A DNA stretch of 64,000 nucleotides, from positions 191,345 to 255,344 of the forward strand of contig JAYTSD010000017.1 in assembly GCA_043745805.1 (NCBI GenBank), given 5' to 3'. Shown one piece after another: positions 6,896 to 46,538 of the stretch. The DNA comes from Fibrobacteria bacterium. GTDB taxonomy: Bacteria > Fibrobacterota > Fibrobacteria > UBA11236. Each line of letters begins with the position of its first letter. Position 1 is the first letter of the stretch. The position numbers and the translations under genes are program-made. Under the pieces are notes generated by a model, which ran no database searches, was not told the DNA's origin, and saw nothing but the letters and a program-made list of their open reading frames with translations.

Positions 6896-8137
6896 TTAAT
6901 GCTCAAAGCTTTTAAAAATTAAGGTGCAATTATGTCCGCCAAAACCAAAGGAATTAGATAATACCGCCTTGACCTTTTTTTCCTGCGCGACATTCGCGAC
7001 ATAATTTAAATCACACTCTTCATCTTTTTCAGTTTGATTAATAGTGGGATGAACAATGTCCTGAGTTAAGGCTTGAATATCCGCTATGGCTTCCACGGCC
7101 CCAGCCGCACCCAATAAATGACCAATCATCGATTTAGTGGAATGCACTAAAAGTTTATTAGCATGCTCGCCAAAACATTTTTTGATGGCTTTGGTTTCTC
7201 CAGCGTCGCCTAGTGGAGTGGACGTACCATGTGCGTTAACCACATCAATATCTTCAGGATTCATTTTTGCCGAAGCCAGCGCCAATTTCATAGCGCGATA
7301 GCCGCCATTACCTTCGGGATGAGGAGCCGTAATGTGATGTGCATCACAAGTTTGTCCAAAACCAACTATCTCAGCATAAATTCTGGCGCCACGTGCCTTG
7401 GCATGATCCAAACTTTCAAATACCAAAACGCCCGAACCTTCGCTCATAACAAAACCATCACGGCCTTTATCAAAAGGACGAGATGCCTCAGTAGGGCTTT
7501 CATTGCGGGTAGAAAGAGCTTTCATATTCGCAAAGCCGGCATAAATAATTTCACAAAGTGTAGACTCTGATCCACCAGTGAACATAATGTCGGCATCGCC
7601 ACGCTTAATAATTTCAAACGCTTCCCCCATACTATGATTTGCGCTGGCGCAAGCAGACAACATGGTAAAATTTGGGCCTTGCAAATTATTTTCAATGGCA
7701 AAATAAGCGGGAACCGTATTGGCTAACATCATAGGAATAAAAAATGGAGAAACACGACGATGACCTTTTTCAATCATCACGCGCATATCCGATTCGAATA
7801 CACCTGTGCCACCGATACCTGTACCAATAGCCACACCCGCACGTTCGGGATCAAAATGTCCTTTTAAACCGGCATCTTCCATCGCTTGCGTTGCGGCCAC
7901 ATGGGCATATACTACACAACGATCTAAACGCTTCGCCATTTTCTGATCTTTGAAAAAGGGCAAATAATCAAAGTCCGCCACTTGACCGCCAATGCGACTA
8001 GTCATGGTGCTATTATCAAATCGATCCACTATGCGAATTCCACTTTGGCCGGCAGCTAATTTTTTCCAATAGTCTTCCACATTCAAGGCTAAAGGATTAA
8101 TCGTTCCCAAGCCTGTTATTACTACTCTTTGACTCAT
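6896..8137 (-). CDS. fabF: 3-oxoacyl-ACP synthase II
   Basis: SACAS active-site Cys, NAHGTST, KSMIGHLLGAAG, SNSFGFGGHN. Confidence 0.95.
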   Translation of the reverse strand: MSQRVVITGLGTINPLALNVEDYWKKLAAGQSGIRIVDRFDNSTMTSRIGGQVADFDYLPFFKDQKMAKRLDRCVVYAHVAATQAMEDAGLKGHFDPERAGVAIGTGIGGTGVFESDMRVMIEKGHRRVSPFFIPMMLANTVPAYFAIENNLQGPNFTMLSACASANHSMGEAFEIIKRGDADIMFTGGSESTLCEIIYAGFANMKALSTRNESPTEASRPFDKGRDGFVMSEGSGVLVFESLDHAKARGARIYAEIVGFGQTCDAHHITAPHPEGNGGYRAMKLALASAKMNPEDIDVVNAHGTSTPLGDAGETKAIKKCFGEHANKLLVHSTKSMIGHLLGAAGAVEAIADIQALTQDIVHPTINQTEKDEECDLNYVANVAQEKKVKAVLSNSFGFGGHNCTLIFKSFEH

Positions 8138-14025: not shown

Positions 14026-15012
14026 TCATTTGCTTTTAGTAGATGGATTTGTAGCCTTTAGTATTTCGTCTAAACCTATCTCCACCGTAAAGCGATGTGT
14101 TTGTCCTAGTGACAACTCACTGCTTTGACTGGTCTGAAACGCATACTGTACAGCTACTCCAGAAAAATTAAAACCCAATCCTCCGGTGAATAGCATATTG
14201 TCTCGGCTATTTTGAAATATACTATTGGCCCCACCTCGCACAAAAATGCTCCAATTATCTTTGGAGAAACCATACTCCAAACCACCAAAGCCTTTATAAT
14301 TGCTCGCTACACCATTTATTCCTTCGGTGTATTCCACATCTTTTTTGTTGGCAATATCCGTGGCCACAGTAATCTGATGATGAGCATTGCTCCAAATATA
14401 ACCCAAACCGTAGCGCAGTTCCGGTTCAATTTTATCACCCATCATATCGGCGCCTAATGAATGCCCAGCAATACCGAAGCGAAAACCATATGGAAATTGC
14501 GTGAGAAATCCTAAATCAAAACCTGTTCCCGCACCATTATCGTTACCGCTGCTCAGCACATAGCGATTAATACTCACACCTATACTGGTATGTTGAAAGC
14601 CCAATAAGTTGTCCCAAAGCTCACGACCACCAGCTAACGAGAAATCATGCTCGACCCAATTATTCGTTTTGTAAGTATCGGTATTACCTTCTTCCAAATT
14701 TGCGTACTGCATCAACCAGCCACCTGCTAAAACTCCCACACCACTGATAGGAAATACACTGTTGAAATAATTCACATTCAATCCGGATATATCCTTCAGC
14801 AACCAATTCGTTTCCGAAAAAGTAATTCCTTTGATTTGAGGAAGCCCTGCTGGATTCCAATAAGTGGCCGAGGCATCATTTGCGATGGCGACAAATGCCC
14901 CGCCCATACCAAAGCCGCGTGTTCCCATTTGTAAATCCAATGGTTTGGAAATACTATATGTTACGCTGAGGGAAATGCCCAATAAGAGTCGAAGCCAATT
15001 TTTGTTTTGCAT
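14026..15012 (-). CDS. PorV/PorQ-family outer-membrane beta-barrel protein
   Basis: Signal peptide; 'GTRGFGMGGAFVAIANDASATYWNPAGL' FadL/PorV N-terminal signature; C-terminal 'LGQTHRFTV'. Confidence 0.8.
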   Translation of the reverse strand: MQNKNWLRLLLGISLSVTYSISKPLDLQMGTRGFGMGGAFVAIANDASATYWNPAGLPQIKGITFSETNWLLKDISGLNVNYFNSVFPISGVGVLAGGWLMQYANLEEGNTDTYKTNNWVEHDFSLAGGRELWDNLLGFQHTSIGVSINRYVLSSGNDNGAGTGFDLGFLTQFPYGFRFGIAGHSLGADMMGDKIEPELRYGLGYIWSNAHHQITVATDIANKKDVEYTEGINGVASNYKGFGGLEYGFSKDNWSIFVRGGANSIFQNSRDNMLFTGGLGFNFSGVAVQYAFQTSQSSELSLGQTHRFTVEIGLDEILKATNPSTKSK

Positions 15013-15021
15013 AGTCCCTCC

Positions 15022-18000
15022 TTATTTCTTCACCAGCCCAAGGGGCTTGCGGATGAGTTGTGAAATTTTGCCATCATCAGATACGTATTTAAAGACATAA
15101 ACATAAAGTCCTGCACCTGCGAATTTGCCGGATACATTTTGCCCATCCCATTCTTCTGAAAATGTGCCAGCACTTTTTACCGTTTGCAAAGGAATGATTT
15201 CCCTGGCCATATCACCTGCTAAATCAAGAATATGCAAGGATACTTTTCCTGCCGCAGGCAATTGATAATTGAATACCGCAGGTTGATTTTGATGGATAGG
15301 ATTGTGATTCCAATATACCTTAAGTTTGGTGGGAAGGGGCGCGATATCCGAAGCTAGATCATATAGGGTAAAATGATTTACAGTTACCGTAACACGATGG
15401 TTAATTAAGTCGCGACTTGACTCTCCCGCTTTGACCCACGTAGAACCATCCCAAAAAACAATGCTCAGGGTTTTGGGGTCAATATCGGGAATACCATCTT
15501 GGTTTTTATCCAAATCCGCTTCAGTATACGATAAAGTAAGTGTTACAGGTTTACGGAATATGGTTTTATCCGGTCCATATTCATGGGGCACGCCTAAAAG
15601 CTTAATTTGGTTGTCCAAAGGTTTTGGCTCTTCGATAGGATCCACAATACGAACTGTTACCTCCAGAGGATGGTATAAAGATTGGGCTGGGATAGTTACC
15701 CCGCTGCCATCAGGGCTAGTAATGGTGGCCGCAGAATCGGGCTTCACTAAAACGGTGACCTTCGGTTCAATAAATGTTACTTCGCCGGATACTGTATCGA
15801 TATTCCCTGCCCTATCTCCCGTAACTAAGAGGATACGGTTTTTTCCCGGCACCAAATTAATGATGCGGCTGAATTTTCCTTGGTCCAACGGAATACCGTT
15901 AGGACTGTTGTTAACATGCGCAGCACTATCATTGAGCACAACTAAGTTCACAAAGGCCATGCCTGAGCCTCCGCTATCGCTAAAATTGCCCTTCATCACC
16001 AATTTTTCGCTATATACTTCCCCGTGCACACTATCCGCTCCGCGTACAGGTTTAGGAAGCAAATTGAATACAGCAATAGGTGCAATATTGTCCAGTACCA
16101 CAAAGCTTTGTAAGGTGGTATCATTGCCCAAAGCATCACGTCCACGTAAGGAATAAAGAATTGCTCCTGAAGTATCATTGTTAACATTCACAGTTGTGCT
16201 AAACACATTGTCACCCGCCACTAAGTCACCGTTCAAACCGTCATCATGCATAATTAAGGTTTGAGGAGTCGTCGCAATTTTCGCTGTGTATAACACCATC
16301 GCAGAATCCTTATCTAAGCCAGCAATATAATCCAAGCCTAGGGCCGAAATTACGAGTGGCAAACCTTTTTTACTTATGCTGCCATTATCAGGATAGCGCA
16401 CCGAAGGCATGCTAATTTTTGGGGCGGAATTATCAATTTGCATAGAGACGATAGAGGACAAACCATTTTTTCCACTGCCATCCGTGCTACGTATTTGTAA
16501 TGTGAAAGCCCCATCTTTAAATAATCGCGTATCCCAATTAAAGGTGGAATCCGACGCAACTTGCCAAGCGCCACCCGCTAAAGCAATTTCATTTTTAACA
16601 ATGACATCGGGCGCTACAGCCTTAGCCTTAAAGCGTACTGTCGTTAAACCGTTCACTAAAGCCGCCGGAGTTGGGTTATTAATAGTTACCGTAGGCGCAT
16701 TGCGAATATTAAACTTCACAATCGTGGAGAAAGCCGTCTTGCGATTGCTATCGCGCACCTGTAATTGCAATTGATGCGCCCCTTCAGTTAGAGCACGAGT
16801 GTCTAGGATCAAAGTTGAATCTGTATTCGTAGCTCGCCAGTTACCTCCATCCAGAGCATAAAAAGTCGAATCTACAAGTGCAGGCGCCATGGCTGATGCG
16901 TTGAAAAGCAAAGCTAGTTGCCCAGACACTGTCGAATCCGCCAAAGTTGTCAATAAGCGAATACTTGGAGCATTTTTACTGAGAACGGTAACCAGTAAAG
17001 ACCAACCGACTTTAGCATTATTATCCGTGCTTTTAATTTGGAAAGTATGCGAACCGTCGATCCAAGCCACAGTAACCACGCTATCAACACCCGCAAGGCT
17101 CAAGGATGCATTCGCCTTACCGTCGACGTATAAAGAATCTGTAGCAATTGTCGCAATGCCTTTAGGCGTAACGGTGTAGGTCAGGGCAACTTTTCCGGAG
17201 ACCGCAGATCCAGCTATGGGCGTGGTTAACACAACAGTGGGTCCATTCTGTATCAAATAACTTACAACTTGGGAAGTCGCTTGCCCACCAGCGGTATTGG
17301 TTACCCTGATTTGTACCGTATGATTTCCTTCACTTAAATTCGCCGTATTCCAGGTATGCGTTGTTGTCGTAGTCGTAGCAATATAGGCCGCACCATCAAT
17401 AGATATTTCCGTAACCGTGATGCTACCTGAACCTGCTGTAGTTGTAAAGGCTATAGTTTGCGTTCCTGAAAGCGTACTACCTGGAGTGGGTGTGCTTAAG
17501 CTGACAGTAGGTAAACTGCTGCTACCGCTGCCATTACCAATGGTCAAGGGTACTAAACGATCCAAGGCTAAACCACGAATATTGGTTACGCGAAAAATTA
17601 AAGTGTCGGATCCGTTGGCCAGATTGGTTACGTTCCAAGATCCAGACCACTCCCCTGCCCTAGCAATTCGAGTTAAATCAATTTTAGTGGTGGTATCCGA
17701 TGCACGAAAATATTTTACCGAAACAATGGAATCTACACCTGAACCTGCTAAACCATTATCCTGCGCAAAGACACGCAAATTCACAACACCTTCTACGGTT
17801 GCATCATCGACCGGAAAAATCACTTGGGAATAGGGTGCGCCTAATTGTAATTCTGGCCAACCAATTGAGGAATATATACCCCCATTATTATCCAAAATCA
17901 CACCATCGCTATTGGGAGAATATTCCCAATAATAATCCGCTACGGCTCCCGCTTTGGCATCATGATAACGGATGAAAAATCCCATCGGAGAATTTGCAGA

Positions 18001-19305
18001 AAAGTTTAGATCTTGTGCATCACCCGTGCGGTTAATTTGGAATTCGTATTCATAATTTCCTGCTGCAAAACGTTTACCCATTGCTGTTTGACCTGCCGCC
18101 ACATCAGCGATCCAACTTGTTGCCCCCCAATGTTGATCGTTCGCTAGCACAAAAGCATTTTCCGTCGCTTTCAATGCATTTTCTTTGCCTGCATCTAGGA
18201 TATAATTTCGCACCGCACTTGGACTGGTGGCATAACTTTGTTCTTGATAAACGATGCAAGTATCACCCGCATCATTAGTAGGATCCACTACTTTAAGACC
18301 TACATAAATATTTTTATTGGTAACATCTTCCACAGAGTAAAGTGTGGCCGGTAAAGTATGCCCATTAAAATCTGTTAGCGTGATACTGCGGCGATATGAT
18401 CCACGCCAAGCATCATCGGGGGTCGTACCACCGGAAATATTGCCATCGATAATAGGATTGCCATTGGCATTGAAGGTGGAATAAAAAGTGAGAAAAGATC
18501 GTTTCACACCTAAACGTAAATCAGCCCAACCGGGCAATGAATCAGGGCGTGTTTTAGAACGATTAGTTTCAATCCAGTTATAAGTTTTATTTCCGCCTTG
18601 TTCAAAGGCTTCAATATATAACCCTAATTCCTGGTTATTGGTTACATTGAGATAGGAATTATTATCATTAATGGTATTTCCATTCAAGGGAATTTTATAT
18701 TCCGCTTGTACAAAGGAAGATCCTAAATTACTTCCCGATCCGCTAAATACGGCTGCATTAGTATTGGCTATCCAAGTCGTACCATTATAGGATCCTTCCT
18801 CCTTGGTATTATTATTCGGAAATACTTTTGCATAGTATTCTGCATTATTTATTCCGGCTCCACCACCTTGCAAAAGATCATCATGATTGCCTCCACCTAT
18901 GCCTTGATCAAAATGTAGGGTAAGGTAATTTCCTACTGCGGAATTGCTTAAGTTAGTCGTAATACCAACATAGAGATAATTATCATCATTCATTAAATAA
19001 AGCGTTGCAAGTGCAGAATCCGCACCACTCGCTGTTTTCAATCGCACTTGGCGTACAAAAGCATTTTTCCACTCATCATATTCTACACCGGCAGATCCAA
19101 GCGGTGCATTATTGGTTTTGTCCGTAACACTACCGTTAATTTTAGGGGGAACGCTTGTGTAAGCACTGTATAATTGTAGAGCTTTGCCTTGTCCGTCCGA
19201 AATATGTGCAAAAGATGCTGGGGCGAGTATCGCTATACATCCAAAGCTTGCGCATAATGTTTTCCGTATCGTGTGATGAAACGTTTTTTTACATCCGCCT
19301 GTCAT
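15022..19305 (-). CDS. Large secreted multidomain protein: 2x CBM9/DOMON-like, Ig-like repeats, choice-of-anchor-X-like motif, ZU5-like domain, FlgD-Ig C-terminal sorting domain
   Basis: ATG at 19305 with AAGGAGG RBS (1427 aa) and a signal peptide. Repeated 'W-N/D-T...EG.HT.Q' Ig units, 'MHDDGLNGDLVAGDNVFS', and C-terminal 'WDGQNVSGKFAGAGLYVY'. Confidence 0.8.
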   Translation of the reverse strand: MTGGCKKTFHHTIRKTLCASFGCIAILAPASFAHISDGQGKALQLYSAYTSVPPKINGSVTDKTNNAPLGSAGVEYDEWKNAFVRQVRLKTASGADSALATLYLMNDDNYLYVGITTNLSNSAVGNYLTLHFDQGIGGGNHDDLLQGGGAGINNAEYYAKVFPNNNTKEEGSYNGTTWIANTNAAVFSGSGSNLGSSFVQAEYKIPLNGNTINDNNSYLNVTNNQELGLYIEAFEQGGNKTYNWIETNRSKTRPDSLPGWADLRLGVKRSFLTFYSTFNANGNPIIDGNISGGTTPDDAWRGSYRRSITLTDFNGHTLPATLYSVEDVTNKNIYVGLKVVDPTNDAGDTCIVYQEQSYATSPSAVRNYILDAGKENALKATENAFVLANDQHWGATSWIADVAAGQTAMGKRFAAGNYEYEFQINRTGDAQDLNFSANSPMGFFIRYHDAKAGAVADYYWEYSPNSDGVILDNNGGIYSSIGWPELQLGAPYSQVIFPVDDATVEGVVNLRVFAQDNGLAGSGVDSIVSVKYFRASDTTTKIDLTRIARAGEWSGSWNVTNLANGSDTLIFRVTNIRGLALDRLVPLTIGNGSGSSSLPTVSLSTPTPGSTLSGTQTIAFTTTAGSGSITVTEISIDGAAYIATTTTTTHTWNTANLSEGNHTVQIRVTNTAGGQATSQVVSYLIQNGPTVVLTTPIAGSAVSGKVALTYTVTPKGIATIATDSLYVDGKANASLSLAGVDSVVTVAWIDGSHTFQIKSTDNNAKVGWSLLVTVLSKNAPSIRLLTTLADSTVSGQLALLFNASAMAPALVDSTFYALDGGNWRATNTDSTLILDTRALTEGAHQLQLQVRDSNRKTAFSTIVKFNIRNAPTVTINNPTPAALVNGLTTVRFKAKAVAPDVIVKNEIALAGGAWQVASDSTFNWDTRLFKDGAFTLQIRSTDGSGKNGLSSIVSMQIDNSAPKISMPSVRYPDNGSISKKGLPLVISALGLDYIAGLDKDSAMVLYTAKIATTPQTLIMHDDGLNGDLVAGDNVFSTTVNVNNDTSGAILYSLRGRDALGNDTTLQSFVVLDNIAPIAVFNLLPKPVRGADSVHGEVYSEKLVMKGNFSDSGGSGMAFVNLVVLNDSAAHVNNSPNGIPLDQGKFSRIINLVPGKNRILLVTGDRAGNIDTVSGEVTFIEPKVTVLVKPDSAATITSPDGSGVTIPAQSLYHPLEVTVRIVDPIEEPKPLDNQIKLLGVPHEYGPDKTIFRKPVTLTLSYTEADLDKNQDGIPDIDPKTLSIVFWDGSTWVKAGESSRDLINHRVTVTVNHFTLYDLASDIAPLPTKLKVYWNHNPIHQNQPAVFNYQLPAAGKVSLHILDLAGDMAREIIPLQTVKSAGTFSEEWDGQNVSGKFAGAGLYVYVFKYVSDDGKISQLIRKPLGLVKK

Positions 19306-19522
19306 CGACGCCTCCTTATCATTTTTTTTATCTGGACTCAAAACTCATATAGTAAGCTTATTTGATTTTTGAATTGGAAATGAGATTCTCTAAAATTGAT
19401 TATCTAATAGATGAATCTCTTATTACTAGGTAAGATTTTAAAATTGGATATTTTTTTTGATGTAAGTATTACCGAAATAACTATCCTGATTTCCCAATCA
19501 AAAAAATATCTATAACAATTGG

Positions 19523-19540
19523 AAGCAAGGTTGATGCCTA
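19523..19540 (-). promoter_or_regulatory. Sigma54 -24/-12 promoter for the large surface protein/PorV unit
   Basis: Minus strand reads TAGGCATCAACCTTGCTT: GG-N10-GC with a TTGC -12 box. Confidence 0.75.
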
Positions 19541-19599
19541 AAAGAATTGGGCGAAATTTGTTTAATTGAGTCTATATTAAATTCAAGTAAAAAAAAAGA

Positions 19600-19617
19600 T
19601 GAGGCTATTTCACCCCA
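19600..19617. promoter_or_regulatory. Putative bEBP upstream activator site 1 (palindrome)
   Basis: TGAGGC-TATTTC-ACCCCA; matches the three other 18-bp sites. Confidence 0.65.
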
Positions 19618-19690
19618 CATTCAGTTAGAAATTTCTTTATAAATATTTTAATCCTATATAAACCAAGACTTTAGCAAGCCGTAATAATTG

Positions 19691-19708
19691 TGTAGTGATT
19701 TGACCCCA
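19691..19708. promoter_or_regulatory. Putative bEBP upstream activator site 2
   Basis: TGTAGT-GATTTG-ACCCCA, 91 bp from site 1. Confidence 0.6.
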
Positions 19709-19857
19709 AAAGTCTAAACGAATCGACGACTCTTACTCTATAGTATGTTAATCCTCTGCTTATTTTTTTCTTATAAAGAAATTTATGCCTTCCTCATTAT
19801 TATTGACCTATTTTTCTCCGGGTTAAAACAGATGTTAAAGGAGCAAGGAACTTGCCA

Positions 19858-20276
19858 ATGAACAAAGAAAAAATTTAGTCTCTTGGAGCGGAGGCAAGGA
19901 TAGTAGCCTAGTGCTGCACGAATTAATTCAGTCCGGTAAATATGCGATCGAAGCTCTGCTTTGCGTAATCAAAGAAAAAGATCAGAGTATTAATATGCAT
20001 GGAGTACCCGTTGGAAAAGTACTGATGCATTATTCCGAATTGGGTATAAATAAAACAGCCTATGGAGATTTGTTTTTAGAAGCTCTTCCACCAAGTATTG
20101 ATCGTTGAGGAGAGAATAGGGAATTTCATCCCTTTGTTTTTAATGGCCCGCTCTTTAAAAATCCCGTAGGTTTCCAAGCGGCTGCTTCGGTTTTGCAACA
20201 CTTCCGTGACGGAGCTCATGAATTTCTTTTAGGGTTTTGCGATCTAATACCATTAGAATTTAATACCGTATCTTAG
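19858..20276 (+). pseudogene. Degraded adenine-nucleotide alpha hydrolase (Dph6/MJ0570-like ATP pyrophosphatase)
   Basis: Reads MNKEKI[frameshift]LVSWSGGKDS...MHGVP...GDLFLE...LPPSIDR*GENREFHPFV...FCDL: a PP-loop, an in-frame TGA at 20106-20108 and large internal deletions. Confidence 0.8.
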
Positions 20277-20408
20277 TAGTTACCTTCTCTTCAATGGAAA
20301 TGCAAAAAATTTGCGGGCAATGTTTGCAAAGCGAAATAGAAAATGATAAATTTGGCTGAACCTCAGGATGCTTTTTGCAATGGTTAACTGGATTGGAAAT
20401 AGCGTAAA

Positions 20409-22232
20409 TTATTTGCGATAATCGTCGGCGCGTAAATCCGCTTCTTCCATTAATTTCATCAGCCATTTGCGATCTACATCCAACATTTTAGCAGCTAGCG
20501 AAACATTGCCAGCAGTTTTACCTAGCGCCTCTGCAATCGCCTTTTTATCTGCTTGCTGTCGAACTTCTTTTAAGGTCGTCTGGCCAAAGCCATTTTCGGT
20601 AGGAGCATCTCCCCAATCCCATTGCAAATCCTCTGGGCGAATTTGTTGTGTATTGGAAAAGAGCACAGCCTTTTGCATAATATTTTCAAGCTCGCGAATA
20701 TTACCGGGAAACCTATAGGTCAATAATTTATTACGTGCTGCAACAGAAAAGGTTTTAAGAGGTAAACCGAACTGTTGCAGATATTTTTTGAGCAGATAAT
20801 CGGCCAAGAGCAAAATATCCTGACCACGCTCACGCAGAGGGGGAAGTAGCAAGCCCAAAACCGATAAACGGAAAAACAAATCTTGCCGAAAGCGCCCTTC
20901 CTGAATTTCTTTGGACAAATCCCTATGGGTAGCACAAACGATACGTACGTCCACGGTTATGGGCTTCGTGCTGCCTATGCGCGTCACTTCGCCTTCTTGT
21001 AATACCCTTAACATTTTCACTTGCAAAGAAAGAGGTAGTTCGCCTATTTCATCCAAAAATAAAGTGCCTTGATGCGCGGATTCAAAAAGACCGACTTTGC
21101 GTTGATCGGCACCGGTAAACGATCCTTTTTCATGCCCGAATAATTCTGATTCAATAAGATTAGCCGGTATAGCGCCACAGTTAAGAGCAACAAAGGTTTT
21201 ATCCATGCGTTTGGAATTTTCATGCACATAGCGTGCTAGTAATTCCTTTCCCGTTCCCGTTTCTCCTCGAATAAGCACCGTTGCATCGGTTTTAGCGATG
21301 CGTGCGGCTAACTCCATCATCCCTAGCATGGCGGGACTGGCGTAAATCATTCCGCCCTTTGATTCCATACTCACCTTTTGCAAGCGTTCTATGGTTTCCT
21401 TTTGCCTTTGCGCTTCCCCATGGCGGGATAAAATTTCTCCGAAAAGTTTACTCAAGGTATCACAAAGTAAACGTTCTTTTTCGGTAAAAGGAATGCCGCC
21501 ACCCAACCTATCCATATAAAGATACCCCAAAGTATCCCCGCCTTCGCGCAAGGCCACACATAAGATTGAAGCAATATCATTGGTACGCAAAGAGCTTAAA
21601 GAGTTTTTGTCTTCCCATTCGCCTTCATGAAGCAATACAGCATGGCTAGAGGCTTTAGCCCAATCGATAGCTCGATCGGAAAATCTTTCTAAACCGCTAT
21701 GCATGGGGTAACGTGCAATAGTATGTCGCAATCCATTCGTCTTATCTTCTATCACAACCCGAGCCGCATCGCAACGTAACAAACGAGATACTCCAGATAC
21801 TAAAGGTGTAAATACATCCGCACCTCTTTCTCGCAACAATTCCACTAAGGCTTCGATTAACTCCCCTAGAGGAGCTGACATTTCATCATGATTTATAGGG
21901 CTTTCCCCTATTGGAAAGGTATCCGTTTCATTTATAGGCTTATCTAGGTAATGGTAACGTGATATTCCTAATTCCAAGTGATCGCCATGCACAAGTGCTA
22001 AGGCTTCAGTAACTTTGACTCCATTACATTTGATAACGCTATCCGCAGTAACTACTTGTAAAAAATATTTACCTTCCCGAAACAAAAAATGTCCCATTCT
22101 CTCTTTTAGCCCTTTTCCTTGCAATTGTAAATTGCAATCCCTGGAAGTGCCAAAAGTAATCAGGCGACCAGAAAGCACAAAGTCAGCCTCTCCATTTTCC
22201 AATTTAAGCAATGGATATTGATGGGTTGGCAT
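20409..22232 (-). CDS. Sigma54 enhancer-binding protein with FHA-like and GAF domains, AAA+ core and Fis-type HTH
   Basis: GETGTGKE, ESELFGHEKGSFTGA, LFLDEIGE, FRQDLFFRL, PGNIRELEN, GNVSLAAKML. Confidence 0.92.
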   Translation of the reverse strand: MPTHQYPLLKLENGEADFVLSGRLITFGTSRDCNLQLQGKGLKERMGHFLFREGKYFLQVVTADSVIKCNGVKVTEALALVHGDHLELGISRYHYLDKPINETDTFPIGESPINHDEMSAPLGELIEALVELLRERGADVFTPLVSGVSRLLRCDAARVVIEDKTNGLRHTIARYPMHSGLERFSDRAIDWAKASSHAVLLHEGEWEDKNSLSSLRTNDIASILCVALREGGDTLGYLYMDRLGGGIPFTEKERLLCDTLSKLFGEILSRHGEAQRQKETIERLQKVSMESKGGMIYASPAMLGMMELAARIAKTDATVLIRGETGTGKELLARYVHENSKRMDKTFVALNCGAIPANLIESELFGHEKGSFTGADQRKVGLFESAHQGTLFLDEIGELPLSLQVKMLRVLQEGEVTRIGSTKPITVDVRIVCATHRDLSKEIQEGRFRQDLFFRLSVLGLLLPPLRERGQDILLLADYLLKKYLQQFGLPLKTFSVAARNKLLTYRFPGNIRELENIMQKAVLFSNTQQIRPEDLQWDWGDAPTENGFGQTTLKEVRQQADKKAIAEALGKTAGNVSLAAKMLDVDRKWLMKLMEEADLRADDYRK

Positions 22233-22234
22233 AA

Positions 22235-23605
22235 TCAATTCAAGTCTTTCGATGATCTTTGTGCAAGCATACTGAAAGTTTTTCTTTGAAAAGGAAGCAA
22301 TGACATTTTCTCTATTTGCAAATCATGGCCCATTTTATCGCGACAAAACAAAATGTGAGTTCCAAAAACAACTGGAATTCCTACACGTGCCGTAGCAGGT
22401 ATTAATAGTCGTTGATCTATAAATAAACGATCACACGATTCAGGGTTTTCAATATAAACCCAACCGGAAAGTTGATTTTGCCCGTGCACCATTTCTTTTA
22501 ATCGCAAACCTTTTGTTAAATGTTCATTTGATTTATGGGGTAACACGAGTAAGACTCTTGATTCCTTATTTGCAGAAGTTACTGCAAAAGTTCGTACTTT
22601 AGCTGATTGTTTACCGAAATAAAAAGCCAAAGCTAAAGCCGACATGAATCCCAATAATATTCCCACACTCCATATTTTTTTTATTCGATTCTTGCGTTGC
22701 GAAATACTCGGAAATTGCTCCATCATTTTTAATGCTTCGAGTGAATCCGGATTTTCTTCTAAGCATTCAGAGAGTAACCAATAAGCTTCTTCCTCCCGTT
22801 TAGCAAAAAGAAGATTTTTCGTCGCTTGCATAAGATGCACCGATAATTCTTGAGCCGTGAACTGTCCGATTAATATTTTCCAATCACTAGAATGGCGAGG
22901 AGCTAATTTTGTTTCCCATTCAGTCCAAAATTGAAACGCAGATTCCGGCCTCCGTAAAGGATTGTCAGCCAATAAAGCGGTAATGGGAATTTCCCATTCT
23001 GAACCTAGATCCAATTGGCGCAAAATTCTACCCAAAGCAAATAAATCTGCTTTCATAAAATTTATAGCATCACGATCTTCCCATAATTCTGGAGCCATAT
23101 AGGCTGGAGTTCCCTTTACAGCATCCACAATAGATCGTTTACCTCCATCCATTTTTTTTGCAAAACCAAGGTCTACCAGATAAATACCATCTTTGGGAGA
23201 TATTAAAATATTTGCTGGCTTTAAATCACGATGGGCAAAGCCCAAACGATGTAAGCTTGCCAGAGCAGAAATAATCGCGGAAGCCAGTACTGAAGGATCC
23301 CATTGTGGTAAATCTTTTTCCAAAATGGAAAAAAGTGAAACGCCCTTAATCCATTCCATGACGATGCAAACTTGTTGCCCCCAAATGAAAGCATCGTAAA
23401 TATCTGGAATACATCCCAAGGGCATTTGCGCTTGAATTTTTGCTTCCTTCAATAACTCTTCGCGACGTAAAGGATTCTTTTCTGATAAAATTTTAATGGC
23501 TACCCATCGATCAAGTGCAGTTTGGCGCACACGATATACTGAAGAAAAAGAACCTTCCCCTATTGTCATCGGATGCGAAAATCCTTTGGGCAATTTTGGG
23601 ATCAT
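22235..23605 (-). CDS. Membrane-anchored Hanks-type Ser/Thr protein kinase
   Basis: GEGSFSSVY, VAIK, HRDLKPANIL, DLG, GTPAYMAPE; a TM helix (IWSVGILLGFMSALALAFYFG) and an extracytoplasmic C-terminus. ATGA overlap with the upstream gene. Confidence 0.9.
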   Translation of the reverse strand: MIPKLPKGFSHPMTIGEGSFSSVYRVRQTALDRWVAIKILSEKNPLRREELLKEAKIQAQMPLGCIPDIYDAFIWGQQVCIVMEWIKGVSLFSILEKDLPQWDPSVLASAIISALASLHRLGFAHRDLKPANILISPKDGIYLVDLGFAKKMDGGKRSIVDAVKGTPAYMAPELWEDRDAINFMKADLFALGRILRQLDLGSEWEIPITALLADNPLRRPESAFQFWTEWETKLAPRHSSDWKILIGQFTAQELSVHLMQATKNLLFAKREEEAYWLLSECLEENPDSLEALKMMEQFPSISQRKNRIKKIWSVGILLGFMSALALAFYFGKQSAKVRTFAVTSANKESRVLLVLPHKSNEHLTKGLRLKEMVHGQNQLSGWVYIENPESCDRLFIDQRLLIPATARVGIPVVFGTHILFCRDKMGHDLQIEKMSLLPFQRKTFSMLAQRSSKDLN

Positions 23606-24273
23606 GGATTTTCTCTTAATTTGCTTTCCGCAAAAGCAAACCAATAAATAATATCTTCATTTTGCGGCATTGCTCGTAAAGCTTTTAACCAGTGATCATG
23701 CGCTGGCTTAAATTCACCGGCTTGCCAAAGTATCATGCCTAAATTAAAATGAGCTGAAGCATCATTACTATCTAGTTGAAGTACTTTTGCAAATAAGTTT
23801 TTCGCTTTAGAAACTTCTCCCAGTTTGCCGTAAATTATACCCGCAAGATTTAATGGTTGAACATTATGCGGTGCACGTTCAGTAGCCTTGGCTAAAGCAG
23901 AAAGAGCTGACAAAGTGTCGTTTTGATTCAAGCAAATGCGAGCCTTTTCTGTATAGACATCTGCTAATAAACTCGATAAATCTTCCGTTGGATGTAAACT
24001 CCTACACGCTTCAAACTGAACTAAAGCATATGCAAATGCTGAACTATCTGCTTCTGCGGTTGCTTTTTGTAATAATGCTTTACCTAAACCCAGACGTGCC
24101 AAATAATCTTCAGGATTTTCTTCTACGGCTCGAATAAAAAATTGTGAAGCTAAAGGATAATCTCCTAAATCCAAACAAGCATAGCCTTTTTCTAAAACTG
24201 AATTTTGACAACCATTAACGATAAACAAAATGATTAACAAACCATGAAATGTAAGTTGCTTTATTTGTTTCAT
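23602..24273 (-). CDS. TPR-repeat lipoprotein
   Basis: Lipobox-like IVNG-C; several TPR units such as 'AHFNLGMILWQAGEFKPAHDHWLKAL'. TAATG overlap with the upstream gene. Confidence 0.8.
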   Translation of the reverse strand: MKQIKQLTFHGLLIILFIVNGCQNSVLEKGYACLDLGDYPLASQFFIRAVEENPEDYLARLGLGKALLQKATAEADSSAFAYALVQFEACRSLHPTEDLSSLLADVYTEKARICLNQNDTLSALSALAKATERAPHNVQPLNLAGIIYGKLGEVSKAKNLFAKVLQLDSNDASAHFNLGMILWQAGEFKPAHDHWLKALRAMPQNEDIIYWFAFAESKLRENP

Positions 24274-25865
24274 TATGAACCCCAAGACTTATTCCATTTA
24301 ACCGCCGCAGAATATTCTTTGTGCGGAATCCAAATGGCTGCATCTTGTGACAAGTTGGACCATGTTCTAAACATATTAAATTCTAAAGTTAGGTAACCCC
24401 AATTCATTAAAGAGCGCTTTAAATTAAATCCTATTTGAGCCCGTTGATCGATGCGTTTTTTAATTTTATGCAAAGCCGACGAGGAACTATAATATTCCTT
24501 TATACCACCATTTTCCACTCGCAATAGAGAACTATAATATTTTCCATCTACTTGATTCAAAACTAAGCTCCGAAAACTTTGCGCTGCAGTTGAAGAAGCC
24601 GATTGCGGTATTTTCGCCTCCAGCCATGTATAGGATTTGGGATAAATTGTCAAAGCGTAACCGCTATTGATCTCTCCAATCCAATTCCAATATAGTGGGT
24701 GCGTATAGGAAAGGTTCGGAAAAATACTGATAAAACTTTGTGGTGAAATGGCAGAAGAAATGCTTCCAGGATCATTAGTATAGAGTTGATAAGCCGTAAT
24801 TTTTTGATAGGGAATACTATCTTGAAATTGATTGTCCTTAAAATGAGTCGGACGGGGCTTTGAAACGTCATCGACATATAAAAGAGGAATTTTTTCAACT
24901 GCTTGATCGACTTGTACTCCGAAAAAAGAAAATAACCAAGCAAAGCCTTTCCCTTTTTGTAAAAAACCATCATGATACCAAGTTAGCCATCCGGAAGTGA
25001 AACGCTTATCTCCATGAGAATTATATTCCGATTCAATGCCTGCATTTGCAAGCATAAGTCTTTCTTCAGAAATATTGAGATAAGATATTTCCGTGCGGTA
25101 AGAATAAACATGTCCTATACTTGTTACCTGTCCCATTTGGCCTGCCAGCGTGAGCGAAAGACTGTCCCAAATATGTTCGACTTTAAATTTTAAATTGATA
25201 CGATAATCGAGAGAATCATAGTAATAGTTTTTTCCAATTTCATAACCCACTCCGCTACTTAAAGGAAAACGCTTGGGAGATAATAGCGGCCATAACAAAT
25301 TTCCTTGCTGTTTAAAAAGCCAACCCGTCGAATTGAGTCCTTCTGGAGATTGCGAAAAAGGGTAATCATATGCCGTAAAATAATTTTCTCGATCATAACC
25401 TGAACTCCATTTCAAATCCCATTGTGGAATACGGTTTTCTTCAGGAATAAGTTTTTGTGGCAAGGAATCACGGAGCTGCGCCGCTTCAATCGACAATCCA
25501 GCAATACTGTATAATTTATATCGCTGCTGCAAAACCATATTTCGCATAGGTTGGAAAGCGGGCGTTCGAATCGTCAGATTAAAAGCCATTGCAGTGTCAT
25601 AGGAACATTTTCCAAAAGCTGCTTCAGCAAGAAAATAGTATAAGCTGTCTAACGACATTCCATGCTGATAAGCCTGCATAAAATAATCTTGTGCCAAATC
25701 ATTTTGACCCTTTTGTAAAGCTTGTTGACCCAGCTCCAAAACTTTTTCCACCGATTTGGAATTTTCTGATAAAGGTATAAAGCCAGATTTTTCCGCGTGC
25801 GAAATTGTTCCAACAGATAAATAAACCAATAAAAAAAATATCAGTATGCCAGACATACTATTCAT
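24273..25865 (-). CDS. Exported protein with an N-terminal TPR-like region and a probable outer-membrane beta-barrel
   Basis: Signal peptide, helical N-terminus, then alternating aromatic beta-strands ending 'YSAAVKWNKSW'. Confidence 0.55.
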   Translation of the reverse strand: MNSMSGILIFFLLVYLSVGTISHAEKSGFIPLSENSKSVEKVLELGQQALQKGQNDLAQDYFMQAYQHGMSLDSLYYFLAEAAFGKCSYDTAMAFNLTIRTPAFQPMRNMVLQQRYKLYSIAGLSIEAAQLRDSLPQKLIPEENRIPQWDLKWSSGYDRENYFTAYDYPFSQSPEGLNSTGWLFKQQGNLLWPLLSPKRFPLSSGVGYEIGKNYYYDSLDYRINLKFKVEHIWDSLSLTLAGQMGQVTSIGHVYSYRTEISYLNISEERLMLANAGIESEYNSHGDKRFTSGWLTWYHDGFLQKGKGFAWLFSFFGVQVDQAVEKIPLLYVDDVSKPRPTHFKDNQFQDSIPYQKITAYQLYTNDPGSISSAISPQSFISIFPNLSYTHPLYWNWIGEINSGYALTIYPKSYTWLEAKIPQSASSTAAQSFRSLVLNQVDGKYYSSLLRVENGGIKEYYSSSSALHKIKKRIDQRAQIGFNLKRSLMNWGYLTLEFNMFRTWSNLSQDAAIWIPHKEYSAAVKWNKSWGS

Positions 25866-25961
25866 ATCGAATTTTTAATTGTAATTTTATTTGCTAAGAC
25901 CAAAGAATCTTTTCTTAAACAATGTGTTACCGTTAAAAAAATACTTATCAAAAGGACAAAA

Positions 25962-26651
25962 TTATCTTGGCCGAGAAATAATGTATTGTAATGTCTGTTT
26001 CGATTTTCGTATTGGCTGCCCGGTTTGATTTTCCAAAAAATTTAGCTTCCGACCAATTAGATTGAATGAGTTACTGGATAACTTTTCACTCGTCAAAAGT
26101 GGGGTGCCATGCGGGGCATGAATAGAAACCGTGGCGGTAGAAAACTGTATAGTGGAAATAATATCTGAATAATAAGTAACATTATTCGCCATATCTGTTG
26201 AATCTCCAATTGCATAAATCTCATATCCATAATTTCCATTTGCGGTATAGCGCAAGTATTCCGAATAAGTCGCGTCGCCGTTTCCAGGATAAAAGATTGA
26301 GTAGGCTTCTGGAGCCCAATAAGAATGCAGCTTAACACTTGCGGCGGAGTCATAAAAGGCAACGGATCCAAAGGGAAAGACAGAATTTTCCACAGCTAAC
26401 ATATAAGCAATAAATTGTGCCTGTGTCCAACTTTCGGCTGTTGGATAAGTGATTTTGTCGATTGAATATACAACCAAGGATAACTGTGATTTATGGGCTT
26501 TTGTTGAATCGCGAAAATAGTGTTGATTGGTTCTAGCCTTAATTTGCACCCAGTTTGTAGGTAAAATGATGGAATAACCGAGTGAGGCATCGGTGATAGT
26601 TTCAGCGAAAATTGAGGTAACAAATAATACCAGTACCACTAAAAATTTCAT
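25962..26651 (-). CDS. Secreted hypothetical protein with a short C-terminal sorting-like tail
   Basis: Signal peptide; 'GYSIILPTNW' (PsbP-like start); tail 'VSIH...FNLIGRK'. Confidence 0.65.
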   Translation of the reverse strand: MKFLVVLVLFVTSIFAETITDASLGYSIILPTNWVQIKARTNQHYFRDSTKAHKSQLSLVVYSIDKITYPTAESWTQAQFIAYMLAVENSVFPFGSVAFYDSAASVKLHSYWAPEAYSIFYPGNGDATYSEYLRYTANGNYGYEIYAIGDSTDMANNVTYYSDIISTIQFSTATVSIHAPHGTPLLTSEKLSSNSFNLIGRKLNFLENQTGQPIRKSKQTLQYIISRPR

Positions 26652-27055
26652 TTTTGTAAATCCTTAAATTCTAATTTACGTTCTTCCTTTCTATTTTCCA
26701 TATCTGCCATTGCCTTGTCAACTCGATTCTTTACTTCGGGTGGTAAATCTTTTAATGCTTCTAGCTTTTTTTCATGGCGTTCTTTTGGTATGCCTTCAGA
26801 AGATGATTTCTTTTTTGTTTTTGATGGAGACTCCTTAATCAGAGGAGCTCGAGCAGAATCTACTTTTGCACGATTGTCTTCAGGAAGTTTTTTTAATATT
26901 TCTGCGTATAGTGCATCATACTTTACTTTAGTTGGAATCACAACGGGGGAGTTATTTTGCTTTTGAGTAATTGAATTATTTTCTGGATCAGCATTTGCAA
27001 TTATCGCTAAACAAAGTAGGCTGGGTAAAATTTTAAGACAGTCTTGAAATCGCAT
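26648..27055 (-). CDS. Small exported helical Lys/Glu-rich protein
   Basis: ATG at 27055 after a GAGG RBS; signal peptide; two 'L..LP...+.+V..A' units. Confidence 0.7.
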   Translation of the reverse strand: MRFQDCLKILPSLLCLAIIANADPENNSITQKQNNSPVVIPTKVKYDALYAEILKKLPEDNRAKVDSARAPLIKESPSKTKKKSSSEGIPKERHEKKLEALKDLPPEVKNRVDKAMADMENRKEERKLEFKDLQK

Positions 27056-27151
27056 GTTAACCTCATTGTTACTAGAAAAAGGGAGAAATAACTTTCCCTT
27101 TTTCATACCTTAAATCAAAGAAGAATTTTAATTCCCTCTAATGCACAAAGC

Positions 27152-27571
27152 TTAAGGATTAGCTTTGGCATCCGCTTTTCTTTCATCCAAACGTTTAGTC
27201 ACAACCTCTTTGGCCTTAGTTACCTTTTCTTTAGCAACATCAGGTAAGCCATTCAATGCATCGATAGCTTTTTGTAGATTTAAAATCGCGGCAGCTTTTT
27301 TTTCTGTAATCGTAGCTTGAATTTCTTCTGGAGTTTTTCCGGAAGCCTTCATCGCATCAATATCAGCTTTAGCAGCTTTAGCTGCAGCTTTAGCTGCAGC
27401 TATTTTATCAGCAACACCGGCAGGTAGGTTTTTCATGGCATCAGCAACTTTGGTGCTAGAAGTAGCCTTGCCCATTGAGTCTGCTGCTGGAGGAGTGCTA
27501 GGTTTGCCTTGTGCAAATACACCAGTAGCCAAAGCCATTCCTAAGGTAAGAGTCGTTAATAATGCTTTCAT
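27152..27571 (-). CDS. Small exported helical Ala/Lys-rich protein
   Basis: Signal peptide ending VFA-Q, AAGGA RBS, AAAK repeats, two LP-helix units. Confidence 0.8.
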   Translation of the reverse strand: MKALLTTLTLGMALATGVFAQGKPSTPPAADSMGKATSSTKVADAMKNLPAGVADKIAAAKAAAKAAKADIDAMKASGKTPEEIQATITEKKAAAILNLQKAIDALNGLPDVAKEKVTKAKEVVTKRLDERKADAKANP

Positions 27572-27645
27572 AATTAATCCTTTTTGAATTGTTAAGAAGC
27601 CTTCATTTGTACGATTACTTCAAATCAGGCTTCTCTTTATATTGG

Positions 27646-27663
27646 AAGCAACCCTTATGCCTA
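27646..27663 (-). promoter_or_regulatory. Sigma54 -24/-12 promoter for the 27571-20409 unit
   Basis: Minus strand reads TAGGCATAAGGGTTGCTT (GG-N10-GC). 27641-27665 is 21/25 identical to 19518-19542. Confidence 0.78.
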
Positions 27664-27722
27664 AATAAAAACTTCATAATTAATCAAAAAAAGGCATGTT
27701 TAAAAAGGAATTCCTTATTTAA

Positions 27723-27740
27723 TGGGTTGTTTTAACCCCA
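27723..27740. promoter_or_regulatory. Putative bEBP upstream activator site 3
   Basis: TGGGTT-GTTTTA-ACCCCA, with the same 62-bp offset from the -24 GG as site 1. Confidence 0.68.
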
Positions 27741-27811
27741 ATAGGACTTCAAATCATCAAGTATCATTGATAAGTCATTGAAAAATATGAGTTACACAAA
27801 ACAAGCTTTCT

Positions 27812-27829
27812 TGGGGTGAAATGACCGCA
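27812..27829. promoter_or_regulatory. Putative bEBP upstream activator site 4
   Basis: TGGGGT-GAAATG-ACCGCA, 89 bp from site 3. Confidence 0.65.
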
Positions 27830-27855
27830 ACTAAATTTCAAACTTAAGGATAAAA

Positions 27856-28419
27856 TCAAGAAAATAAATTCTGAAACAAGAAAAATGAACCGCATACCCC
27901 TAAGCCCAAACTAACATACCACAGAGGTTTTTTCTTCACCAGCACTGCAATAGCTGACATGGCAATTGCGATCTGAAAAAATGTTACCCCGCGGGCAAGT
28001 ACACTGTGTTGTGCTAAATGTTGTTCTCCTGATTTTTGTTTTTCTTCCGCTTTTTCTTGAATTTCTTTTTGTTCTTTTTTGTAATCGGAAATTTTTTCAA
28101 TGTCTTCCTTAGAAGCTTGTTTTCCTAAGACGGTAAGCAATTCTAATTTATTGGAAAGTATTGCCGACTTAATACCTTTGGCTTGATAATACGACCATTG
28201 ATCAGAAGCCTGTAATTGCTCAATCATCGCTTCATTAGCATGATGACCCGCTAATAAAGCAGCGATAGCGGCAAGCACAGCGAGCAAAGCTGAGCTTAAT
28301 GCAACTTGCATAACCCAACTCACTCCATTTTTATGTCCCTCACCATGGCCCGCTTCATGGGCGGCCTCATGAATATTTTCATGCAAATGTTCGGTGGGAA
28401 CTTCGATTTCTTCCGGCAT
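27856..28419 (-). CDS. DUF4337-like membrane protein
   Basis: 'VALSSALLAVLAAIA', 'ASDQWSYYQAKGIK' and 'FQIAIAMSAIAVL' are typical of this family. Confidence 0.75.
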   Translation of the reverse strand: MPEEIEVPTEHLHENIHEAAHEAGHGEGHKNGVSWVMQVALSSALLAVLAAIAALLAGHHANEAMIEQLQASDQWSYYQAKGIKSAILSNKLELLTVLGKQASKEDIEKISDYKKEQKEIQEKAEEKQKSGEQHLAQHSVLARGVTFFQIAIAMSAIAVLVKKKPLWYVSLGLGVCGSFFLFQNLFS

Positions 28420-46335: not shown

Positions 46336-46538
46336 AATTTCTCCTCAATATCCAAGCAAACACTTAAGCACCCATTTCCTGGATACTTATATAAGTGATA
46401 CAAAAACACCCTTTTGTCCTAATATATTTCATAGCAAAAATAATGCCTTCATTTATTACATTCTTCTTACAAGTTAATTACAGAAACCCCAAAATGAGCT
46501 ACTTTTTCAAAGATGATGTTTTCTAGGAGAACAGTAAC

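Follow-up and report, generated by a model that had tools for sequence, protein, structure and literature searches.

We analysed a 64,000-nucleotide stretch of contig JAYTSD010000017.1 from a Fibrobacteria bacterium (positions 191,345 to 255,344; hereafter the window), in which nine open reading frames (ORFs), all on the minus strand in the ORF listing, span 14026-27571 and form two units, A and B. All nine lie where the original prediction, made from the sequence alone, had placed them. At a probability of roughly 0.6, we read unit B as an autoregulated, sigma-54-dependent envelope signalling cassette with a control module that is portable and also stands in front of unit A. That the two units form a regulon under shared control is well supported by sequence comparison; for the relay steps via the outer-membrane barrel, and from the kinase to the activator, we infer the connection. 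In the proposed mechanism, a bitopic Ser/Thr kinase of the Hanks type is predicted to be held at its C-terminal ectodomain by a TPR lipoprotein, and an outer-membrane TPR-barrel protein of 530 amino acids (aa), together with up to three exported proteins, would modulate the lipoprotein–kinase complex. The kinase would in turn control the adjacent activator, a bacterial enhancer-binding protein (bEBP) with an FHA fold and a GAF domain, as the invariant pairing of the two genes suggests. Comparative footprinting indicates that the activator may bind pairs of TGGGG-N8-CCCCA sites that precede a -24/-12 promoter by approximately 80 and 170 bp, thereby driving its own operon. A second copy of the module would drive, in this genome, a giant protein that is probably exported by a type IX secretion system (T9SS), together with a PorV/PorQ-family partner, while in related genomes the genes controlled by extra copies would encode a small lipoprotein or a 139-aa protein paralogue.

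The string AGGCAT-N5-TTGCTTCC had exactly two matches on both strands of the 3,949,059-base genome, one located 5' of each unit and both in the correct orientation. The regions upstream of units A and B could be aligned collinearly at three blocks, corresponding to the distal site, the proximal site and the promoter. The flank of the -12 element, TTGCTTCCAAT, was identical in both units, and so was the spacing of the proximal site, 79 bp. Copies of TGGGG-N8-CCCCA with one mismatch numbered 47 genome-wide, three of which were located in these two regions, and exact copies were absent from the genome. No third promoter with a site of at most one mismatch at the proximal-site spacing of approximately 79 bp was found genome-wide; this search returned only two sites, lying 156 and 213 bp away from loose matches to a promoter, in addition to two-mismatch pairs of chance-like appearance. 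The genome encodes rpoN (207.8 bits) and a total of 15 full sigma-54 activators. Elsewhere in the window, a sigma-54-like string, AGGCAT-N5-TTGCT, was observed at 46434-46447 on the minus strand, 112 nt 5' of the gene for GTP-dependent phosphoenolpyruvate carboxykinase (44557-46335); this string may be due to chance, because no palindrome was seen there.

The conservation of unit B was assessed among relatives that are metagenome-assembled Fibrobacterota, and the negative results across these relatives hold for the sampled genomes. The 530-aa family was present in 13 of 40 related genomes and in 62 of 296 Fibrobacterota genomes, representing 31 of 70 genera. One large family of the phylum, accounting for 151 genomes, yielded none. 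In a profile search of 1.84 billion representatives, only 194 reached E<=0.001, indicating that the family is small and, as far as sampled, lineage-specific. In the close loci, the gene order small139, small152, sec229, barrel, TPR lipoprotein, kinase and bEBP (the first three named after the 139-aa, 152-aa and 229-aa exported proteins) was retained wherever the locus was long enough, with the exception of locus L022, in which sec229 and the barrel gene were the only cassette genes detected. The order from sec229 to the bEBP gene was likewise retained in all 12 distant loci, which belong to five other families, with sec229 undetected in one of them (L047). The orthologue of the TPR lipoprotein gene at L036 (11533-11650) carries an in-frame stop near its 5' end, which could reflect either a sequencing error or a broken gene.

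The control region was conserved together with the genes. Upstream of the small139 orthologue, GG[CT]A[CT]-N5-[TC]TGC was present in 8 of 10 related loci and TGGCCC-N5-TTGC in the other two, and two sites of the TGGGG-N8-CCCCA type, approximately 80-90 bp apart, were present in 8 of 10, the proximal site being approximately 80 bp from the promoter. Within the 12 distant loci (about 199 kb in total), sites with no more than one mismatch numbered 20, every one of them within 1.3 kb 5' of the first detected cassette gene, and 10 of the 12 loci carried at least one such site. Since the bEBP of the cassette is the sole DNA-binding protein travelling with the motif, we call the operon autoregulated, a designation based on comparative footprinting. 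The two genome-wide promoter matches, the collinear sites and the conservation 5' of unit B orthologues agree with the original prediction that both units share one sigma-54 promoter and palindrome layout, and the conservation of enhancer and promoter with the cassette points in the same direction for its proposal that the bEBP autoactivates its own operon. Taken together, unit B appears, from gene order and shared upstream motifs, to be an old cassette that is widespread in Fibrobacterota.

The genes for the 530-aa protein, TPR lipoprotein, kinase and bEBP overlap or abut by their coordinates, as had been described. The sequencing runs listed for positions 18500-28000 of the window were four DNA runs from a single study, with no RNA run among them. 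The likely start of the kinase is the ATG at 23605, which overlaps the stop codon of the lipoprotein as ATGA. The catalytic residues K51, D140 of HRD, N145, D158 of DFG and the APE motif were invariant in 23 orthologues, and this invariance supports the catalytic competence of the kinase. The protein has one transmembrane segment and an ectodomain of approximately 120 aa, ending in an invariant LLPFQ motif, in which P451 and F452 are the only invariant ectodomain residues across the 23 orthologues; a word-indexed search with the non-kinase part matched six proteins and gave no taxonomic information. Complex prediction for the kinase ectodomain and the mature TPR lipoprotein, a check suggested along with the original prediction, gave ipSAE values of 0.78, 0.79 and 0.74 in three runs, compared with 0.00 for the best of three controls. 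Of 80 solved complexes, 58 attained the ipSAE mark used here, as did 2 of 110 mismatched pairs; this calibration is only rough because the alignments were our own. In the predicted complex, the pLDDT of the partners was at least 90 and at least 72% of the contacts were common to the runs. The contacts of least error connected kinase residues 450-454 (LPFQ) to lipoprotein residues 38-43 and 69-77, stretches in which some positions are invariant or nearly so. These results suggest that the TPR lipoprotein binds the kinase ectodomain via the invariant LPFQ motif. Neither a histidine kinase nor a receiver domain was detected at the locus in Pfam and NCBIfam scans of the nine products, consistent with the proposal of a relay that dispenses with a histidine kinase.

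The bEBP gave matches to Sigma54_activat (PF00158; 243.5 bits) and HTH_8 (22.5 bits; cut-off 22), and its translation contains a GSFTGA loop, the Walker A sequence GETGTGKE and a Walker B DE. It thus has the features of an NtrC-type activator, namely, an AAA+ domain and a Fis-type helix-turn-helix; the genome also encodes rpoN, and the presumed targets are preceded by -24/-12 promoters. The Pfam FHA score of 17.7-20.0 bits was below the cut-off of 20.7. In the AlphaFold2 (AF2) model of residues 1-266 (pLDDT 84), an FHA fold is followed by a GAF domain, and the FHA-fold model matched GarA, Rv1827, OdhI, FhaA and EmbR with TM scores (target) of 0.8-0.85 and a root-mean-square deviation of approximately 2 A. 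The profile of the 23 bEBP orthologues matched the FHA domains of EmbR (E 2.1e-7), Ki-67 and GarA.

Two other kinase–activator loci were observed in this genome. On contig C2 (39324-43265; L057 5325-9266), a paralogous trio encodes a TPR lipoprotein, a Ser/Thr kinase and an FHA-like/GAF sigma-54 activator of the same non-canonical FHA type; the ectodomain of this kinase is without the LPFQ motif, and the trio is preceded by unrelated proteins of 727 aa and 577 aa that belong to no family. Membership of the 577-aa protein in the 530-aa family was ruled out (hhalign probability 0.1). Contig C1 (21464-26502; L058 2965-8003) encodes a sigma-54 activator along with a Ser/Thr kinase, an exported protein of 239 aa and a lipoprotein-like protein of 371 aa; this activator, near the kinase, has a canonical FHA domain (60.3 bits). 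The C1 pair and the C2 trio indicate that kinase–activator pairing is a recurrent design in this genome.

The 530-aa protein matched no Pfam or NCBIfam family. Its AF2 model, built from a 14-row alignment (pLDDT 81.2, pTM 0.67), shows a periplasmic helical TPR-like domain at approximately 35-134 and a beta-barrel at approximately 148-529. The top Foldseek matches were BcsC (9b8a, 9b8h, 6tzk) and PelBC (9h80_M). By Z-score, the barrel was nearest to the small 14-strand barrels CymA (20.9) and OmpG (19.6), with PgaA (4y25) at 16.6, and the helical part to the TPR-like domain of LpoP (13.7 over 102 residues). Both the model and the structure matches indicate that the label of a TPR/barrel protein, as first given, is right. 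Among the exported proteins, the 229-aa protein is conserved in the cassette and gave a PsbP score of 22.5 bits (cut-off 23.5), while its profile matched nothing in the PDB. The profile of the 139-aa protein, searched against the PDB and Pfam, returned helical low-complexity noise only and no family; its gene is the most conserved of the cassette among close relatives, with 62-74% identity in close orthologues. The likely start of the 152-aa protein is an internal Met ahead of the signal peptide. ESM Atlas scores of 0.79 for the 139-aa protein and 0.75 for the 229-aa protein are leads only.

Unit A consists of the giant gene and a PorV-like gene. The giant protein has 1427 aa from the ATG at 19305, or 1439 aa from an alternative TTG at 19341. 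Pfam and NCBIfam detected Big_7/Big_13 Ig domains, a choice-of-anchor X domain, a ZU5-like stretch and a C-terminal FlgD_ig-like domain, while the N-terminal region of approximately 500 aa matched no known family. The CBM9-like character originally proposed for the giant is not borne out: residues 1-535 gave no CBM9 match at E<=5 and no match to PDB sequences at E<=1, and the CBM9 Pfam domain was found in none of 20 giant homologues. These homologues are labelled Chitinispirillaceae by NCBI. At the C-terminus, FlgD_ig scored 24.6 bits (cut-off 27) and CHU_C had an E of 0.2; no curated T9SS signal model matched, and the last 100 aa were weakly similar to the C-termini of PorU (E 8e-4) and of a T9SS-dependent protease (E 0.03). 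The genome encodes the T9SS translocon protein SprA (TIGR04189, 456 bits) and gave 14 matches to the PorV family model. The PorV-like protein scored 87.4 bits against the PorV/PorQ model NF033709 (cut-off 90; E 1.3e-24; model positions 7-324 of 326), 31.3 bits against canonical PorV (NF033710; cut-off 250) and 43.9 bits against PorV2 (cut-off 325). By these scores, what had been called PorV is a PorV/PorQ family-level relative near the threshold, a paralogue rather than canonical PorV. On contig C14 (99190-102825), a 548-aa protein with a giant-like C-terminal domain of the WDGKD...G.Y type is followed by two PorV/PorQ-family genes, forming a second cargo-plus-PorV-like arrangement.

Giant orthologues were detected in 7 of 31 genomes of the family, giving eight giant genes with the window copy. 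The layout of sites and promoter was present upstream of three of the eight, namely, those of the window and of genomes G276 and G019. The G276 orthologue is preceded by two sites and a promoter; in G019, the giant gene follows a small139 paralogue that itself has one site and a promoter upstream. In G019, the giant and PorV-like genes lie directly upstream of the cassette, whereas in the window they lie downstream. The PorV-like gene adjoins the giant gene in G019 and in the window, and in five of five further genomes its orthologue was on the contig and strand of the giant gene, approximately 3 kb beyond the end of the giant, so that linkage was observed in all seven genomes examined. The giant-linked PorV-like orthologue of G276 (G276:C33:21486-22202) contains a single TAA stop within the matched stretch. 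In two genomes of another genus, a signal recognition particle RNA gene (RF00169; L056 1117-1214, 42.3 bits; L050 3315-3412, 41.5 bits) was observed just upstream of the giant orthologue, where a hybrid sensor kinase-like gene is also located and no enhancer pair was seen.

In one genus, the cassette adjoins a different gene; its product is a small lipoprotein characterized by a conserved CHxPPGNPANAH...AHLAHGD motif and by a tail rich in Pro and Asp. This gene lies just 5' of the cassette in four genomes of the genus (L029, L030, L031 and L036; about 7200-7900), in each case with its own palindrome pair and a -24/-12-like promoter. In G019 (L032 10311-10856), it is located downstream of the bEBP gene with one site upstream, and no homologue of the lipoprotein was found in the genome of the window. 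These arrangements suggest that the enhancer-plus-promoter module is portable. The giant gene is, on this comparison, an optional target, and the giant/PorV-like pair no fixed part of the circuit. Of the synteny expected by the original prediction, the cassette order is kept across the phylum, but only three of eight giant genes, the window copy included, carry the promoter; the giant as induced cargo is supported by the layout in this genome, but only as an option.

Several observations weigh against this interpretation. One of the eight giant orthologues has a single site upstream and four have neither site nor promoter, and two genomes, G006 (100% complete) and G023, carry the giant and PorV-like genes with no detectable 530-aa protein. 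Each of the palindromes in the window is imperfect, the distal site of unit A having two mismatches. A T run follows the proximal site of unit A, which a simple scan also flags as terminator-like, and we retain a terminator at this position as a caveat. The paralogous trio on contig C2 could in principle regulate unit A. The input domain of the activator is also at issue. Phosphothreonine (pThr) is bound in canonical FHA domains by the Arg of GR, the Ser and His of SxxH and the Asn of SxNG. In alignments with EmbR, Ki-67 and GarA, these contact positions correspond to T31, K45, M48 and a residue other than Asn; over the 23 orthologues, the Arg is replaced by a variable small residue, the Ser by K/P and the His by M/V/I, and the Asn of SxNG is lost. 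The invariant residues of the domain itself are R25, G30, H50 and G56. Because the canonical pThr residues are missing in all 23 orthologues, a classical FHA-pThr read-out of the kinase is unlikely, and the N-terminal domain, as modelled, appears to be FHA in fold only. The description of an FHA-GAF bEBP holds as to fold and GAF domain, but not as to canonical pThr residues.

The imperfect sites and the C2 trio bear directly on whether units A and B are regulated separately, their likeness being due to duplication of a promoter fragment, or unit A responding to a different one of the 15 bEBPs, such as the C2 paralogue. We regard this as highly improbable: the number of full activators, the presence of a paralogous TPR-kinase-bEBP trio, the degenerate sites and the terminator-like proximal site of unit A would all allow it, but the identical 79 bp spacing and -12 flank, the lack of a third such promoter in the genome and the occurrence of the same layout before giant orthologues in two other cassette-bearing genomes argue for shared control. 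A different purpose for the same wiring is less easily set aside, although still unlikely. In this case, the cassette would mediate an envelope-stress response of the Zra, Psp or Cpx type, with the small periplasmic helical proteins as its output, acting as chaperone-like effectors and feedback inhibitors, and the giant would be a recent, incidental recruit in few genomes. ZraP, CpxP and Spy are the proteins to compare. The position of small139 at the head of the cassette and its high conservation among close relatives, the extra promoter copy before its paralogue in G019, a sigma-54-like site facing a small139-related gene in L024 and the lack of the full layout in five of eight giant orthologues fit this explanation; the small proteins, however, have no detectable relation to known chaperone families.

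The structure matches of the 530-aa protein raise another explanation, to which we give slightly less weight than to a stress response: unit B might be mainly an export or assembly machine, in which the TPR-barrel protein and the TPR lipoprotein form an outer-membrane conduit similar to BcsC, PelBC or AlgK/AlgE. The exported proteins of the operon, or some unknown polymer, would be its cargo, and the role of the kinase and bEBP would be limited to adjusting expression to load. BcsC and PelBC as top Foldseek matches, the PgaA match and the three exported proteins encoded upstream in the same operon are as expected of such a machine. No synthase or glycosyltransferase family was found among the nine products, however, and the 530-aa protein has no sequence relation to export porin families, with its barrel nearest by Z-score to CymA and OmpG. 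Moreover, the predicted hold of the lipoprotein on the kinase ectodomain involves the most conserved residues of both proteins, which fits signalling. The signalling cassette remains our preferred interpretation of unit B. Overall, the observation made in the original prediction is confirmed, and its interpretation is supported in part.

Coordinates of the features of units A and B and of the gap between the bEBP gene and unit A, in window positions
Feature	Position	Strand	Remarks
PorV/PorQ-family-like outer-membrane barrel gene	14026-15012	-	328 aa, last gene of unit A
Giant exported Ig-repeat protein	15022-19305	-	Unit A, 1427 aa
Unit A -24/-12 sigma-54 type promoter (AGGCAT-N5-TTGC)	19525-19539	-	One of two genome-wide matches
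Unit A proximal enhancer-like palindrome	19600-19617	.	One mismatch to TGGGG-N8-CCCCA; 79 bp from GG
Unit A distal enhancer-like site	19691-19708	.	Left half TGGGG, right half degenerate, two mismatches as read
PP-loop (Diphthami_syn_2) gene remnant	19839-20105	+	In the 1-kb gap from the bEBP gene to the unit A control region
Sigma-54 activator (bEBP)	20409-22238	-	FHA-fold, GAF, AAA+, HTH_8
Bitopic Hanks-type Ser/Thr kinase	22235-23644	-	Pkinase 131.5 bits
TPR lipoprotein	23602-24285	-	TPR families; lipobox VNGC read from translation
530-aa outer-membrane protein	24273-25865	-	Signal peptide, TPR-like domain, beta-barrel (model)
Secreted 229-aa protein (sec229)	25962-26651	-	Weak sub-threshold PsbP-like signal
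Small exported helical protein (small152)	26648-27106	-	152 aa as listed
Small exported Lys/Ala-rich helical protein (small139)	27152-27571	-	139 aa; heads unit B
Unit B -24/-12 sigma-54 type promoter	27648-27662	-	Second of two genome-wide matches; position conserved in orthologous loci
Unit B proximal enhancer-like palindrome	27723-27740	.	One mismatch; 79 bp from GG
Unit B distal enhancer-like palindrome	27812-27829	.	One mismatch

The PP-loop gene remnant encodes 89 aa that match Diphthami_syn_2 positions 2-59 of 219 (28.7 bits) before a stop, and is outside the circuit.

More broadly, the cassette may link the outer membrane to sigma-54 throughout the phylum without a histidine kinase, by way of a lineage-specific TPR-barrel protein, a TPR lipoprotein clamped on the LPFQ tail of the kinase ectodomain and an activator whose FHA-fold input is without classical pThr contacts, with the module copied to surface proteins; this wider proposal is tentative, and we consider it somewhat doubtful at present. 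If it is true, an FHA-fold domain that has lost its pThr contacts and yet is invariably coupled to a kinase would imply an undescribed mode of kinase-to-activator coupling, and the module would have been copied before different surface proteins in each lineage, here a giant T9SS-type protein with a PorV-family partner. Fibrobacterota are important polymer degraders, and to our knowledge almost nothing is known of their regulation. The locus offers a wiring diagram, with a defined motif, TGGGG-N8-CCCCA, whose distances to a -24/-12 promoter are fixed, a predicted lipoprotein–kinase interface of invariant residues, and an input domain with the fold of FHA and without its chemistry. It would also show how one enhancer–promoter module is moved before different surface proteins, and the rare 530-aa barrel family marks a lineage-specific invention.

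No published description of this cassette was found in the literature, supplements aside, in agreement with the original remark that the combination was not recognised as a described system; one paper considered, PMC12316311, makes no mention of Fibrobacter, FHA or threonine kinase. Individual parts of the locus nevertheless resemble known systems. The 530-aa protein is similar to BcsC, PelB and PgaA in that a periplasmic TPR-like domain is followed by an outer-membrane barrel, but its TPR part is much shorter, it has no family match and no synthase is encoded in the operon. Unit A resembles T9SS cargo encoded with a PorV/PorQ or PorP/SprF-family partner, as the Ig-repeat giant has a C-terminal domain that may be sorting-like and is followed by a barrel gene; SprB/SprF is the comparison for cargo with a PorP/SprF-family partner. 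Unlike in known T9SS pairs, the PorV-like partner is below the family cut-off and the C-terminus of the giant is without a curated T9SS signal match.

On the regulatory side, the PEP-CTERM/exosortase regulators PrsK, PrsR and PrsT are reportedly a histidine kinase, a receiver-bearing sigma-54 regulator and a TPR lipoprotein, respectively. As in that set, genes for a sigma-54 activator and a TPR lipoprotein occur together here, with a link to surface or exported proteins; in contrast to it, the cassette has neither a histidine kinase nor a receiver. The best NCBIfam match of the bEBP, TIGR02915, scored 360.5 bits (cut-off 502.6), and TIGR02917 scored 52 (cut-off 312.2), indicating that neither cassette protein is a PEP-CTERM family member. 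In Myxococcus xanthus, NtrC-type sigma-54 activators with an N-terminal FHA domain instead of a receiver are paired with Ser/Thr kinases. We know of no description of a co-operonic lipoprotein, barrel or exported protein for these myxobacterial activators. The cassette differs from them in belonging to another phylum and in its non-canonical FHA domain with a GAF domain next to it; the C1 activator with its kinase neighbour is the example of a classical FHA activator in this genome.

The closest functional analogue appears to be the H1 type VI secretion system (T6SS) of Pseudomonas aeruginosa, in which TagQ/TagR, TagST, PpkA and Fha1 form a threonine phosphorylation pathway that responds to envelope damage (PMC13713981). 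In that pathway, and by our proposal in the cassette, a bitopic kinase of the Hanks type is acted on at its ectodomain by a membrane lipoprotein together with a periplasmic partner and signals to an FHA protein, but the output of TagQ/TagR-PpkA-Fha1 is post-translational T6SS assembly, whereas that of the cassette would be transcription. Unlike the T6SS pathway, the cassette includes a TPR-barrel outer-membrane protein, no T6SS family was found among its nine products, and its FHA domain is non-canonical and fused to a sigma-54 activator. From these likenesses and differences, the cassette is an analogue of the pathway and not a member of it, and would add a transcriptional counterpart to envelope sensing of the TagQR-PpkA-Fha1 type. 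We read the cassette as a previously undescribed form of known kinase/FHA-activator signalling.

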